A stretch of DNA of 64,000 nucleotides, taken from positions 224,001 through 288,000 of the forward strand of contig CAWJPJ010000005.1 in NCBI GenBank assembly GCA_963844715.1, given 5' to 3'. Positions 18,001 through 24,000 of this stretch are shown here, in pieces. Positions within the stretch are counted from its first letter, which is position 1; each line of letters starts with the position of its first letter. The position numbers were made by a program. This DNA is from an uncultured Phycisphaerales bacterium (GTDB lineage Bacteria > Planctomycetota > Phycisphaerae > Tepidisphaerales > Tepidisphaeraceae).

Positions 18001-21000
18001 GGCGGGGATGGAATTGCCCAGCGATTTGAAGCCGGGTGTGCCACCCGCGCTGGATGAGGCGTTCCGGCGAAGTTATGCGCGATTGGAAAAGCGGTATGGA
18101 TCGGCGGGGGAATTTTTGGCGGCGATCTCGAAGGGGAGTTTTCCGCCGCCGTTGGTGTTGCGGCCTCCTGCAATCGTTTCCAATTGCCCAAATTGCCGCA
18201 TGCCCGTGGATGGGGCGGACCAGTTTTGCATGTATTGCGGTGCGCAGGTCGTGCCGATCGTGCGCAGATGCCCAAAATGCGGGGCCTACCCCGATGCGAC
18301 GGACAAATATTGCATGTTTTGCGGCCAATCCATGGTAAATCCAATGGTAACGGCGTAAGAGGCGACAAATGCCGGGTTTGGGATTTGATATACTGCTGGT
18401 CTTCACGGTGATGGTGCTCGCCTGGCTGATTTTCGTCGGGTGGGTGGCCGGCATGATCCTCCGCGGAATCTGGCGCGGGTTGAGATGGATGCTCGGAGCC
18501 GCCGCGCGCCGGGCGTGTATGAAGCGACGGCGTGGCGATGGTGCTCGCGGATTCGCTGCGGCGCGAAAATCCGCCCCAGGCGCGATTTTGCCGGCGGTGT
18601 GGAATGCCGCTGGTCGCGGCGGCGCGGAATCGCCAGAGAGCCGCGGCTTAAGGAACAGACGGCCGGACGATGAACAGAGTCTATCTCGTCGTCTCGCTGG
18701 TCGGCTGGATTTGGTGCGTCGCCGCGGGAGCGGTGATTTACATAAAGTGGCGCCGGAAAAGATCCGGCGGAACGAAAAATGATCGGTCCTGATCCGCAAT
18801 TTCATCGAAGGCTTGAATCGCAATTCATGCTCCGCGTGCAGCAATTGCTCGACGATCCTCGCTTGCGCCTCGAGACGGTGGAAGGTCGCCGTCCGGTGAC
18901 GGATTATCAGCGCCAAGTCACGGCCACGGATCAGGCGGTGGAACTGAAGCGGCTGATGAGCAAACTCGGAAAGCCGGATCGGGAACTCGAAGCGCAGATG
19001 CCGGTGGGCAAGCGGATGGACGTGGTTCTCTACGAGAAGAAATTCTGGTCGGGGAAGACCTCACTGGGACGATTGCGGGTGGCATGCCTATCGCCGACGC
19101 AGCAGCTTATCGAGGGCAAACCATTGGACGCGGCGTCGGCAGAGGATATCCAGAACGTGATATCGCAGTTGCCGCCCCCGCTGCCAGGAATGCCGGCGTC
19201 GCCGCCGACGGTGGTCGTGATGTCGACGAGCGGGTTTACGCCCGAGGCGACGGAAGCGATGGAGCGGGGCGAGGACCGGACGGTGATTTTGCTTTGGCCG
19301 AATCGATCGGGAGGGTGGACGGCGGCGGGCCCGCCGCAGACGCAATTCATCGCCGATCTGTTCGATCCGGAATCGCCCGGCGACAAGAAGCGGCGCATTC
19401 GGGCCGCGATCGAACTGGGACAATCGGAACTGATTACCGGTGCGCTGGTCGGGGAGAAGCTGGCGGCGGATACGGAACTGCCGCTACGAATGGTCGAAGA
19501 CGAAATGAAACTCTACGCGAGGGAATATCCCGGCCTGGTGGCCAAGCGATTGCGCGGCCAAATGGCGCTGTACCGCGAGGGACAGACGCCGCCCGTCGGT
19601 TTACTCCTTCGAGGAGGCGGCAGCATGCCTGTCATGGATCGTTTCTTCCTTACCCGGCTCAAGGCCATCTTTTCGCGAAAGGGCGATCTCGACAAAAAGA
19701 TCGCGCTGCTTTCGGAGCGGCGGGCCGATCTGACGCAATTGCGGGATCGGGGATATCAGGATTTGTCGGTGCTCGAGAAGAAAGAGGATGAGCTGCGCGT
19801 GCAGTTCAAGGACGCGGCGGAGATGCCGCGCCGGCGCATCACCAGCCAGTTGCTCCAGCTTCGCAAGGACGTGGCGCGGCGGCGTCAGCTTTTGTCGGTG
19901 CTGAATCAGCAGGTCAACGTGATCAACACGCATCTGCATTCCCTGGAATTGCAGAAGCAGGGGGAATACGCACAGCTTCCTAGCCCCGATGAGATCGCGG
20001 CGGACGCCTCGAAGGCGGAGGAAGTTTTGGCTCAGCTCGAGGCGGACAGTGAACTGGCGCAGAGCGTTGCCGCAGACACGCATAGCGCGCTGTGGTCCGA
20101 GGAGCAATCGCTGTATGAGGAATTGGTGAAAGAGGACTCGGAGATCGGCAAGACGGAATCGACGCCGGAGGTGGAAGGGCTGCCTGAATCAGGGCCGGAT
20201 GAGCCGGTGCTGCAAAAGCCGCCGGCCTCGCGGTTGCGGCGTTCCGAGGCGGAGCCGGGGTGAGCCATGGCACTCATTGACAAACTATTCGGCAGCCGCA
20301 AGACGCTGAGCCGCCTGTCGCGGCAGGAGCTGCGCAAGGAAGAAATCCTCCTTACCCGGCAGCGGGACCGGCTCTTCGAGCGGCTCGATAAGCTGGTCGT
20401 CGAGAAGCAGAAAATCTTCCAGCAGGGGGCGGGGCAAAAATCGCCGGAAGTGCGCGAGGCGCGTGCGCAGACGTTTGAGCTGAAAACGCAGGAACAACTG
20501 TTCGCGGCCCGCGAGCTAACGCTGCGGAGCAAGGAATTACTGACGGTTTCGCGCTTGCGGCTGATCAAGGAGCGGAACGAACGCGGGAAAGCCGCGGGTT
20601 TGCTTAATCTGACGGACGGGGATGTGGCGCGGATCAGCCAATGGATCAGCGACGACGCGGTTTCGCAGGACACCTATCAGGATCGATTGGATGCGCTGCT
20701 GGAACTGGGGACGGAATCGGATGCGGACGCGATCGCCGGCGCGGGGCTGACGGCCGCAGGGCAGGAACTGATGAAAGTGTGGAGCGACATGGACAAGGGC
20801 GTAGTGAAGGGCGATCGCGCCTTTGCCGCGGCCGACGAGGCGGTGCGGACCCGGCAGGCGGACGCGTCGCTGTAAGTATTGCGCCAAATTAGCGGCGGTC
20901 GCCGCGGCGCTTGCGAGTCATCATGGGACTGTTCAAAACGGATTCGGAACGGCGGATCGAGCGCGAGCTGAAGATCAAGGGGGGCTGCGCAGCGATCGAG

Positions 21001-24000
21001 CGCTCGATCCGGCAGCAGGAGAAATTCGCCGAAGATTTCATCCAGAACGCGCGGAAGGCGCGAAAAATCGGGGACGAGGGGCAATACCAATTCATCCGCA
21101 ACGCGCTGAAGCGCACCGCGGCCATCAAGAAGATGCTGGAGCGGCAGCTTCTGTCGATGAAGAACGCCATGCTGATTCAGCAGCAGGCGCAGGCCAGCCG
21201 GGAATTTTCCGAGTCGATGAACCTGATGGCGCAGCAGATCGGGCAAGTCTTCGGGGAGCTGGACCTCACCAAGACGCAATCGCAATGGGAGAAAGCGGTA
21301 ACCCAGGCCTCCAGCATCGAGGAGCGGATGGATTTGTTCCTGGATTCGATGGAGCAATCGTCGGAACTGGGGGCGTCCGCGCCGGCGCCGCGCGAGGGCC
21401 TGGTAACGGATGACGAAATCGACCGGATGATCGCGGCGGACGTTCTGGCGGAAGAGCGCACGGAACTGGGAAAGCTGGACCAACTCGAATCGGAAATCGC
21501 CAAGGAACTGGGGAAAAACGCGGAATGATCGCCGCGGACATCGATGCCTGCTAGAATATCTGCGATGCCGTTGAATAACGTCATTCAAATCGACCCAGAA
21601 GTCCAAGGCGGGGCGCTTGCTTTACCGGTACGCGCGTTCCAGTGAAGTCTCTCTTTGACGCGTTGCGGCACGGCCGGTCAATCGATTACTTCCTCGAACA
21701 ATTTCCCTCGGTCAAGCGGGAACAGGCATTGCGGCTATTAGAAGAAGCGGCAGCGCTGGTTTCTTCCGGGCCGCGCGCGGCATGAAAGTGTCGCTCGACG
21801 AGAACCTTCCTCACCAATTGCGGGGTTGAATCGATTCATGTCGTGGACGAGTCTTTGCCAACTCGATGAATTGAGCGAAACAACCGGGAAATACGTCGAA
21901 ATCGACGGGTTCCAGTTGGCGGTTTTCCTGGTGGGCGGAGCGGTGCATGTCCTTGACAACACTTGCCCGCACGCGGGGGGACCTCTGGCGGAGGGAGAAA
22001 TCGAGGGGGATTGCGTGGCGTGCCCTTGGCATCAATGGACGTTTCGAGTCACCGACGGCAGACTTCGCGGAGCGGAAACAGTGGGAGTGACGCACTATTC
22101 CACGCGGAAGTTTGAGCGGCCGGGGCAGCCGACGCTGGTGCAGGCGGATTTGCCGATTTATTGAGGTGAGGTTTTAGGGGTCGATTCGCCGCGGCCGATG
22201 GACTGTGACAGGCGAGCCTTCGGCGACGATCGCCGACACGGGGGGCTTCTTCAGATATTCGACGAACGATGGGCCATACGACTCCTCGACGTTGGCACAG
22301 AGTTCCGGAGATTCCGCGTGCCAGATTCGCCATGGGCGATGAATGACGCGATATTCGATTGTGCTGCCGTCGGCGCTGGCGGGTGTATCCCCAGTAATGA
22401 TCGGTGACGAAAGCAGCGAGCGGATCGGCGGGTTCGGCGGGCGAACCAACTGCCGTGGCCGCGACGTGATCCCATTTCCCAGACCATTGCCATGAGTAAG
22501 AGATTCTTCCCGGCGAATTGACGAGTTCGCTGGGTGCGGTGCTGCGCATGGCGACCGCGATATACGGCTCCTGATACGCCCGCCGGGCGATGGATGCGAT
22601 CGAACGGCGCGGGACGAGTTCGCGGACAAAGCAGACGCCGCGGCGAATTTCGCCGTCGGGCATCTCGCGGCGTACGTAGAACCGGAGATTGACCTCGTCG
22701 AAATTGCGATGGAAGGGGATGGGTATATGGAACAATCGCGTGTTAAGAAAGCGAAACCCGACGACGCTGACGAGCGCTGTGTCGTGATGCAGATCTAGGC
22801 AAACGCCGGCAGGGCAGAGCGGCCCGAGAATCGCGGCGGGGACCTGGTATGTCAGCATCACCAGATAGCGCCACTCGGCCGAAAGGAAGCGGCCGGGTTG
22901 ACGGGGTGATTTTTTCAAGGGTTTTGGTCAGCCGGCTTCAGCTTCCCTGGGGAGACTCTTCCGCAAGCCGCGGATATCCTGCAAAAATTCTTTTCGCAAA
23001 ATATAGCGTGTCAGGGTCGCCGCGCCGAAGGAGAAGACGAAAACGTCGGCGGGCGTTGGATTCAGCAGGCGGCGCGAGGTCCACCAGGCGATGAGGATGC
23101 AGACGAGCCACTCGGCGGCGGAGATCACGGCGAAATCGAGCCAGGGGCGGGGGCGGACGATGAACTCGCGCTGGGTGCGTACATAGCGGAGATGAAAAAT
23201 CGCCGTCGCGAGGATTGCGGCCGGATAGGAGAGGGCGGCGGCGTGAATGGGGTGGCGGATGCCGTCGAGCCATAAGAACGCCGCCAGGCCTGCGAGCCAG
23301 CCTATTACGGTGGCGATGAGGAATTTGCTGACCGGGGAGAGTCGCGGGTATTTGAAATCGTACAAGCGGCTGAGGTGTTCCAGATATTTAAACTGCTGCT
23401 TGAGGGACAGCTTGGATCGCCCCTTTTGCCTGAGCCCGAAATGGATGGGGATCTCGCGGACGGACGTGACGCGCGCCTTGCACATCAGCTCCAGGGCGAT
23501 TTTATATCCGAGGGGGGTAAGCTGCTTCGCGCCGGCGTAGGTTTCCCGGCGCAGGGCGAAAAAGCCGGCCATGGGGTCGGTAATTCTGCCCGCGAAAGAT
23601 CGGGCAAGAAACGTCGCGACCCTGGAATTGATTTTTCGAAGCGTGCCCCAGGTATCGGCGGTGCTTCCCCCCGGCACGTAGCGCGAGCCAACGACAAAAT
23701 CCGCGCTGCGATCGCGCAATGGAGCGAGCAACTCGGGCAATTTTTCGGGCGGGTGCTGCAAATCGGCGTCCATCACGCACAGGAATTCGCCGTGAGCCTG
23801 GGCCATTCCATGCAGGACAGCGCCGCTCAGGCCGTTTTCCGGCTCCTTCCGAACGAGCAAGCGGACGGGGTACGTTTTGGACAGATCGGCGCAGACACCC
23901 GCGGTGTTATCGCGGCTGTTGTCGTCGACGATGAGGACCTCATACGCGGCGGGCCGCAGGGCGGCGTCGATGCGCTTCAGGAGCTCGGGCAGATTTTCCG

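Follow-up and report, generated by a model that had tools for sequence, protein, structure and literature searches.

The locus described here raises the question of whether a planctomycete carries a multi-subunit ESCRT-III/Vps4 system, where that system came from and what it does. Recent papers describe ESCRT machines of this kind as missing from bacteria, and no description of this bacterial system was found in the literature. The window, a 64,000-nucleotide stretch of an uncultured Phycisphaerales genome, contains three co-oriented ORFs (g00926, 18779-20263, 494 aa; g00927, 20267-20875, 202 aa; g00928, 20923-21528, 201 aa), in agreement with the three-gene operon of the initial annotation. 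The locus content given there, this operon plus an unlinked ATPase gene, was incomplete: a Ser/Thr kinase gene is also a conserved upstream member of the ESCRT locus. The kinase (Pfam Pkinase E 2e-44, DZR E 6e-8) is kept in 35 of 47 loci of close relatives that extend 6 kb or more upstream and in 6/6 loci L106-L111. The features are as follows.

16917..17330, + strand: small hydrophobic membrane protein, 137 aa, conserved 5' of the kinase gene (ORF reading)
17327..18358, + strand: Ser/Thr protein kinase with C-terminal double zinc ribbon, 343 aa (Pfam)
18369..18782, + strand: short ORF with a hydrophobic N-terminal segment (sequence read by eye)
18779..19582, + strand: g00926 N-half, aa 1-268, alpha/beta fold and winged helix (AlphaFold, profile, VIA)
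19625..20263, + strand: g00926 C-half, ESCRT-III-like helical hairpin with acidic tail (HHalign, profile)
20267..20875, + strand: g00927, predicted ESCRT-III homologue of arCOG09747/arCOG09749 type, 202 aa (profile scores)
20923..21528, + strand: g00928, predicted ESCRT-III of arCOG07402 type, 201 aa (Pfam, profiles, Foldseek, tree)

Profile and structure searches support the assignment of g00928 to the Snf7 clade of ESCRT-III and not to PspA/Vipp1. Its Pfam Snf7 match (E 0.0021; 18.2 bits against a cut-off of 27.3) reproduces the earlier value of 0.002, and Snf7 is matched at E<=0.05 in 23 of 33 aligned orthologues (best 1.3e-6). PspA_IM30 is matched in 0/33 and is absent among the 13 Pfam families listed. 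Against the PDB, a 33-sequence profile finds CHMP3 (E 9e-4), Snf7 (2.7e-3) and CHMP2A (0.15); of the ten matches at E<=10, eight belong to ESCRT-III and PspA/Vipp1 is absent, as reported before, with E-values now weaker than claimed. The AlphaFold model (pTM 0.44) shows a long hairpin (H7-49/H52-110). Its ten best Foldseek matches had been described as all ESCRT-III; eight are (ranks 1-7 and 10), with SNX1-SNX5 at ranks 8-9 and PspA at rank 14, all at E>=0.014.

The nearest family is euryarchaeal, and not CHMP3, Vps2/24 or CdvB as first proposed. A search of 72,556 plasmids returns a single match to g00928, WP_062390961 of Thermococcus peptonophilus (arCOG07402; E 3e-4), to which the g00928 profile scores 64.2 bits; ORFs upstream of CdvC reach no more than 5 bits with it. 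The g00928 family and WP_062390961 form a clade (SH-aLRT 97) and CdvB a separate one, which together with the low scores upstream of CdvC rules out CHMP3/Vps24 or CdvB as closest relatives. The g00928 C-terminal helix is a candidate MIT-binding tail: an amphipathic pattern, picked after the alignment was viewed, occurs in 22 of 32 tails versus 1.3% of shuffles, and the strict MIM1 consensus is present in 4 of 32.

The T. peptonophilus match belongs to a Main-clade system of Vps4 (arCOG01307), Snf7 (arCOG07402, arCOG09747, arCOG09749), a wHTH protein (arCOG09748), arCOG08177, STK and PP2C (Makarova et al., 2024, PMC10936438). Systems of this clade are found alongside FtsZ and have kinase links (PMC10936438). 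Their function in archaea is so far a prediction. The g00927 profile scores 53.5 bits to WP_062390966 (arCOG09749) and 49.6 bits to WP_062390968 (arCOG09747), both labelled 'Snf7 family protein' (Makarova et al., 2024, supplement file 8, PMC10936438). Pfam Snf7 is found in 0/56 members of the g00927 family.

For the g00926 N-half, AlphaFold (pTM 0.88) and VIA agree on a restriction-endonuclease-like alpha/beta domain (aa ~1-198) and a winged helix (aa ~199-268), bearing out the domain order proposed earlier, in which a hairpin follows; VIA gives Z 7.7 to winged helices and a middling Z 6.0-6.2 to MspJI, Rpb5-like and AF1548. The N-half profile scores 60.7 bits to WP_062390970, labelled arCOG09748, and this half is predicted to be homologous to the C-terminal part of that family, an ESCRT-II-like adaptor. 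A Foldseek match of the winged helix to ESCRT-II (rank 4, E 0.021) is generic and was discounted. The hairpin aligns with the g00927 family (HHalign probability 91.9, E 7e-7) and scores 28.4 bits to WP_062390966, a low score with high composition bias; its HHalign probability with g00928 is 0.9, which counts against a shared ESCRT-III identity. PDB profile searches with g00927, the hairpin and the N-half gave nothing informative, the first two yielding no ESCRT match, and the 25 of 42 Pfam families listed for the hairpin do not include Snf7. The profile matches to the published arCOG09747/09749 proteins strengthen the case for ESCRT-III homology of g00927 and the g00926 C-half, superseding the initial caveat that this had not been shown, with a label that rests on one archaeal locus, itself annotated by prediction. 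The hairpin is a separate gene in most other Planctomycetota, and g00926 is best read as an arCOG09748-type winged-helix protein fused to a third ESCRT-III.

The ATPase gene g01652 (C6:499752-500873) is present and frameshifted in the assembly, as noted previously; the frameshifts look like assembly errors, because otherwise identical short-read contigs differ by one base at each. The gene is unlinked here (near g00928 in 0/47 Tepidisphaeraceae loci) and adjacent elsewhere (24/50 phylum loci; 6/6 loci L106-L111), also as described; in 41 of 50 phylum loci, the fetched sequence includes an ATPase gene. Elsewhere in the Planctomycetota, the ESCRT locus encodes two MIT-like AAA ATPases, the second of which had been overlooked. 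In a careful tree (43 of 71 rows, left after removal of four long branches and 24 redundant rows), the overlooked ATPase and euryarchaeal Vps4 form a 100/100 clade; the ATPase trees hold only 4-5 euryarchaeal sequences and leave out Asgard and eukaryotic Vps4, the latter because a scan of viral contigs for the eukaryote-type motif found none. AU tests, with groups named after the tree had been seen, reject a clade of all archaeal Vps4 (p-AU 0.008) and one of all bacterial sequences (p-AU 0.004). Its best single-ring PDB match is VPS4B (237 bits versus 199 for p97 D2), and it is predicted to be the true orthologue of euryarchaeal Main-clade Vps4. It is encoded in 38/251 phylum genomes; searches of 121 Phycisphaerae genomes, among them this one, gave no match.

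The tree and AU tests rule out g01652 itself as that orthologue. Its type groups with CdvC and Main Vps4 in the careful tree (97/85), which points to a distinct Vps4-like paralogue; a quick tree gives no settled placement, and the AU test does not reject grouping with Cdc48 (p-AU 0.164). The g01652 type has a single AAA ring, Vps4_C at E<=0.01 in 17/24 and a Cdc48-type R-P-G-R second region of homology (invariant, 24/24) that is missing from CdvC and T. peptonophilus Vps4. The N-terminal profile of the Vps4 orthologue reaches at least 10 bits in 21/24 g01652-type proteins, 37/58 CdvC and 7/1218 decoys, and also matches Main Vps4 N-termini; Pfam MIT has no match in two N-terminal ATPase fragments. 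NCBIfam CDC48 scores above CdvC in 6/6 g01652-type proteins and in 5/6 true Vps4 orthologues, so these models do not separate the two ATPases, which score 155-225 bits versus a CdvC cut-off of 650. Their PDB rankings are dominated by summed two-ring p97 scores. The proposed partnership of this single-ring, probably Vps4-like ATPase with g00928 is supported by gene order and co-occurrence.

The ATPases follow g00928 closely. Its orthologues occur in 51/251 phylum genomes and 29/121 Phycisphaerae genomes, and 50 of the 51 carriers hold at least one of the two ATPases, counted with profiles built from loci of the same genomes. The 200 phylum genomes lacking g00928 contain no Vps4 orthologue and one g01652-type ATPase. 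In Phycisphaerae, the same 29 genomes hold g00928 and the g01652 type (29 versus 30 of 121 overall), and the same 3 of 15 Tepidisphaeraceae genomes (92-97% complete) lack both, although the genes are unlinked. For 12 of 50 phylum genomes, the g01652 type is the sole ATPase accompanying g00928. In Phycisphaerae, the Vps4 orthologue was apparently lost and the Vps4-like paralogue remains, unlinked in Tepidisphaeraceae; this would be a naturally occurring exchange of the ATPase of an ESCRT system.

Homology, gene order and co-occurrence establish that three ESCRT-III proteins, a winged-helix adaptor, a Ser/Thr kinase and an MIT-like single-ring AAA ATPase belong together. In most Planctomycetota loci, the order is winged-helix protein, two ESCRT-III, Vps4, third ESCRT-III: five genes homologous to, and nearly in the order of, the Main-clade locus, plus the kinase. 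A bacterial system homologous gene for gene to the Main-clade system, its functional reading included, is fairly probable, and it was probably acquired once from archaea and is now patchy across several bacterial phyla. The weakness of direct structural and Pfam matches counts against this reading. Apart from the bacterial host, the differences are a winged-helix protein without the long N-terminal helical/coiled-coil part and fused to ESCRT-III in Phycisphaerae, the Vps4 orthologue not found in that class, and two additions, an SPFH/beta-propeller protein and another MIT-like ATPase. No counterpart of arCOG08177 (inactive Cas2 and TBP-fold) or PP2C was found among conserved locus neighbours.

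Other known systems are less similar. TACK CdvB/CdvC likewise places ESCRT-III beside an MIT-AAA ATPase, ties a winged helix to ESCRT-III and occurs in hosts without FtsZ, but CdvB is its own clade, no CdvA was seen here, and the winged helix here is N-terminal to the hairpin. Likeness to eukaryotic CHMP3, CHMP2A and Snf7 is distant, and no ESCRT-0/I or ubiquitin genes occur among conserved neighbours. CHMP7 also fuses a winged helix to ESCRT-III; this likeness is probably convergent, because the g00926 fusion looks lineage-specific. Bacterial Vps4-like ATPases with a TPR+6TM partner, attributed to archaeal transfer, are reported from phyla including Planctomycetes, with snf7 said to be displaced (Ravi et al., 2024, PMC11237479); by that description, the locus here differs in keeping three Snf7-clade genes. 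PspA/Vipp1 likewise represent the ESCRT-III superfamily among bacteria.

Phosphorylation-regulated membrane budding or repair is the most likely function. The winged-helix protein would nucleate a mixed ESCRT-III polymer on the cytosolic side of the cytoplasmic membrane, a scaffold of SPFH/beta-propeller type would choose the site or cargo together with kinase signalling, and the ATPase MIT domain would grip C-terminal helices and extract subunits to constrict the neck. The outcome would be regulated budding, shedding or sealing (vesicle formation or repair), and not essential cytokinesis.

A PspA-like role in stress or anti-phage membrane sealing, in which the polymers patch or pinch off damage and the ATPase only recycles them, with no cargo sorting or vesicle export, is rather unlikely. 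In its favour, the distribution is patchy and mobile and includes plasmid and chromid copies, this 85%-complete genome of a soil bacterium has no PspA match, and SPFH partners occur in some PspA loci (PMC10936438). Three ESCRT-III paralogues, an ESCRT-II-like adaptor and a kinase nevertheless exceed what PspA needs, g00928 is conserved vertically within families (12/15, 8/8, 4/4), and no relative of it was found in viral contigs.

Co-option for cytokinesis in FtsZ-less carriers such as Tepidisphaerales, paralleling CdvBC of TACK archaea and perhaps the minimal ESCRT of Ferroplasma/Acidiplasma, is improbable. The genome has no tubulin/FtsZ match, consistent with the FtsZ-less framing of the initial annotation and with a loss of ftsZ in all planctomycetes as stated in part of PMC12673574. 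g00928 is single-copy and strongly kept within families, with 68-80% identity among most close relatives, and the Phycisphaerae version is simplified to a fused adaptor and one ATPase. The implied division role is unlikely for a system present in just 51 of 251 phylum genomes and missing from 3 of 15 family members; moreover, the kinase and SPFH partners suggest regulated sorting, and g00928 relatives also occur in Chloroflexota, Acidobacteriota and gut-type contigs. Chloroflexota and Acidobacteriota normally use FtsZ. It would be a long shot that in Phycisphaerae the winged-helix/ESCRT-III fusion, two more ESCRT-III and the replacement motor, of archaeal origin, cut the division neck; if true, this would be a fourth independent ESCRT recruitment to cytokinesis and the first in bacteria. 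That the helical proteins form no functional ESCRT-III polymers, or that the g01652 type is a Cdc48-like unfoldase for other substrates and the class has ESCRT-III without a true Vps4, is very improbable, given the 97/85 grouping, the N-terminal cross-matches and near-perfect co-occurrence despite unlinked genes and in genomes with this ATPase alone, even though coiled coils yield false matches, the best plasmid matches are CDC48 and the NCBIfam and p-AU values count in its favour.

A multi-subunit ESCRT-III, adaptor and Vps4 locus in about a fifth of sampled Planctomycetota, with relatives in other phyla, is a candidate machine for shaping planctomycete internal membranes and for FtsZ-free division. 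Main-clade function becomes testable in a cultured bacterium, because the operon and an intact ATPase gene are present in Fontivita pretiosa B-254.

Contamination is an unlikely source of the operon, given the long contig and synteny in many relatives, and promoter and terminator scans stay at chance level. The gene at 18369..18782 is probably frameshifted in this assembly, because by eye a CxxC zinc-ribbon half sits near 18590 in another frame; tblastn of this genome with one relative's membrane and zinc-ribbon protein gave no match. Relatives have a membrane and zinc-ribbon gene, a candidate counterpart, at this place (Zn_Ribbon_1 E 7e-5 in one). The 16917..17330 product belongs to a family present in 58/131 clustered loci, with an orthologue match in this genome.

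The genes g00926, g00927 and g00928 form an operon in the window:

18779-20263, + strand: g00926, 494-aa ORF, co-oriented with g00927 and g00928
20267-20875, + strand: g00927, 202-aa ORF
20923-21528, + strand: g00928, 201-aa ORF

The initial annotation of g00928 as an ESCRT-III protein rather than PspA/Vipp1 is borne out by its orthologues. Its own Pfam Snf7 match falls under the cut-off (E 0.0021), and Snf7 is matched by 23 of 33 aligned orthologues at E<=0.05, while not one of the 33 matches PspA_IM30. A g00928 profile retrieves CHMP3 (E 9e-4), Snf7 (2.7e-3) and CHMP2A (0.15) from the PDB; PspA/Vipp1 is absent from its 10 matches. 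ESCRT-III proteins occupy eight of the top 10 Foldseek ranks for the AlphaFold model (pTM 0.44), all at E>=0.014. Of 32 orthologues, 22 have an amphipathic C-terminal tail, and a strict MIM1 occurs in only 4. Five metagenomic family members (P0251, P0253, P0258, P0261, P0265) appear by eye to carry a C-terminal FtsK/SpoIIIE-like domain, intact or decayed, after the hairpin.

Judged by sequence, the operon belongs to a bacterial ESCRT-III system that is real and conserved, a novel form of the euryarchaeal Main-clade ESCRT; here its adaptor is fused and its motor replaced. In a tblastn search of 72,556 plasmids (E<=10), g00928 matches a single gene, from Thermococcus peptonophilus (E 3e-4). The same locus is among the best plasmid matches of ATPase 2, a single-ring AAA ATPase of other Planctomycetota, together with Ca. 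Chlorohelix and haloarchaea. Profiles of the N-terminal half of g00926 (WP_062390970, 60.7 bits), its hairpin (WP_062390966, 28.4 bits with high bias), g00927 (WP_062390966/968, 53.5/49.6 bits), g00928 (WP_062390961, 64.2 bits) and ATPase 2 (WP_062390964, 361.9 bits) all find proteins of that T. peptonophilus locus. In the part of supplement file 8 consulted, this locus is labelled arCOG09748 (wHTH ESCRT protein), arCOG09749 and arCOG09747 (Snf7), arCOG07402 (ESCRT-III/Snf7) and Vps4 (Makarova et al., 2024, PMC10936438). The three hairpin profiles reach at most 5.0, 12.4 and 12.2 bits on a set of 87 ORFs lying upstream of CdvC genes in TACK archaea; the CdvC assignment was checked in three loci, of which two exceed the cut-off. 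A quick tree of 51 hairpins groups g00928 with WP_062390961 (SH-aLRT 97) and the other two hairpins with arCOG09747/09749 (81), with TACK CdvB separate from all three. The g00926 N-terminal half is confidently modelled (pTM 0.88) as a restriction-endonuclease-like domain (Z ~6, middling) plus a winged helix (Z 7.7); PMC10936438 reported that the arCOG09748 central domain had no structural match.

The family is present in 51 of 251 phylum genomes; within the class it is found in 29 of 121. Its named close relatives lie mostly in Tepidisphaerales and other Phycisphaerae, including the cultured Fontivita pretiosa B-254. Close relatives share one gene order: a small membrane protein, then a Ser/Thr kinase bearing a double zinc ribbon, a membrane/zinc-ribbon gene, and g00926, g00927 and g00928. 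Among the 47 such loci that extend 6 kb or more upstream, g00926 occurs in 39, g00927 in 40 and the kinase in 35. In other Planctomycetota, g00926 is split into two genes and g00928 is flanked by two different ATPases, ATPase 2 (~410 aa) upstream and ATPase 1 (~375 aa, represented here by g01652) downstream, often followed by a gene encoding SPFH and a beta-propeller. Within 50 phylum loci, taken as stretches of up to 8 kb per side and some ended by contig ends, ATPase 2 lies in 36, ATPase 1 in 24 and either in 41. Further features of the source genome are:

16083-16810 of the window, - strand: second kinase-like gene, divergently transcribed, directly upstream of the locus; 28 relative loci also have its antisense ORF
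C5:296483-297993, - strand: SPFH and beta-propeller gene of the type following ATPase 1 (found in 30 loci), ~8.5 kb past the window end, unlinked here and split in two frames
C6:499752-500873 (L001:5753-6870), - strand on C6: g01652, ATPase 1, with two frameshifts taken as one-base assembly errors

Several loci vary. Tandem g00927-type genes occur in L113, L117, L121, L124 and L138, the last (G213) also holding two ATPase 2 copies. A ~195-aa signal-peptide/lipoprotein-like gene (family F25) lies immediately 5' of g00928 in L115, L116, L125, L126, L134 and L150, five of which lack ATPase 2, and g00928 is separated from the remaining operon genes in L040, L075, L081, L083, L086 and L095. By eye, a short, apparently frameshifted gene 3' of g00928 (window 21566-21785, + strand), resembling a DUF433-type antitoxin, precedes a truncated partner.

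Both earlier statements on g01652, that it is frameshifted in the assembly and that it is unlinked here but near g00928 elsewhere, hold: no ATPase occurs in the 47 close-relative loci, and each frameshift is the site of a one-base difference from otherwise perfectly matching short-read contigs (depth 2.2 and 3.5, one study). Because these differences fall at both frameshifts and the frame is open in 12 family orthologues, g01652 is probably intact. The FtsH gene at C5:21374-22062 is split similarly; the assembly therefore appears indel-prone.

The ATPases are inherited with g00928, in counts where kin are not independent and the ATPase profiles derive from the counted genomes. In the class, the identical 29 genomes carry g00928 and ATPase 1, with one further genome matching the ATPase alone. 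In Tepidisphaeraceae, where the genes are unlinked, both occur in 12 of 15 genomes and the same three lack both. At least one ATPase is found in 50 of 51 g00928 genomes of the phylum (24 both, 12 ATPase 1 only, 14 ATPase 2 only; hand count), and 200 phylum genomes without g00928 yielded no ATPase 2 and one ATPase 1 (genome 66% complete; hand count). ATPase 2 was found neither in the source genome nor in the 121 class genomes; searched at E<=1e-60, the latter give one match, and that protein is an ATPase 1.

A carefully built tree of AAA domains, using 43 of 71 rows and FtsH as the root, places ATPase 2 with bacterial relatives from Acetothermia, Vicinamibacterales, Levilinea, Anaerolineales and Chlorohelix (100/96), sister to four euryarchaeal Vps4 (100/100), which fits one transfer of ATPase 2 from euryarchaea in a tree without eukaryotic and Asgard sequences. 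ATPase 1 forms its own clade (100/99), joining CdvC and Main Vps4 at 97/85; its grouping with Cdc48 is not rejected (p-AU 0.164). It retains R-P-G-R, and CDC48 outscores CdvC in all six ATPase 1 proteins tested. An all-archaeal Vps4 clade (p-AU 0.008) and an all-bacterial clade (p-AU 0.004) are rejected, for groups named after the tree was seen.

The consulted parts of earlier work confine vps4 and ESCRT-III systems to archaea and eukaryotes (PMC10936438) and describe bacteria as apparently without a Vps4-like ATPase (PMC7619361). Sections of a further study report Vps4-like ATPases with snf7 displaced in Planctomycetes, and bacterial Snf7 occasionally with PspA or two-ring ATPases (PMC11237479); its Table S3 and web app may bear on novelty. 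No published description of the present system was found in the literature searched, whose coverage mostly leaves out subscription papers.

The composition, homology and co-inheritance of the gene set are established. Following known ESCRT biology, the winged-helix protein would seed an ESCRT-III co-polymer on the cytoplasmic membrane; site or cargo would be chosen by the kinase together with the SPFH scaffold, and the ATPase, its three-helix domain gripping C-terminal helices, would pull subunits out. Regulated budding, shedding or sealing of membrane is the somewhat favoured function. Pure stress repair seems unlikely. Cytokinesis is more doubtful still: ftsZ is missing from all planctomycetes (PMC12673574), but four of five sampled genomes gave no match to g00928, and Main systems of archaea occur alongside FtsZ (PMC10936438).

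Outside the class, Ca. Chlorohelix allophototropha plasmid stretches (L211, L215) hold two hairpin genes and ATPase 2 with a PP2C and five or more Ser/Thr kinase genes around them, and no g00928 homologue was found in these stretches. A gut-type contig (L259:258-3195) carries an SPFH gene, a small gene, a helical protein, a clear g00928 homologue (120.9 bits; Snf7 E 0.005) and, adjoining it, ATPase 1.
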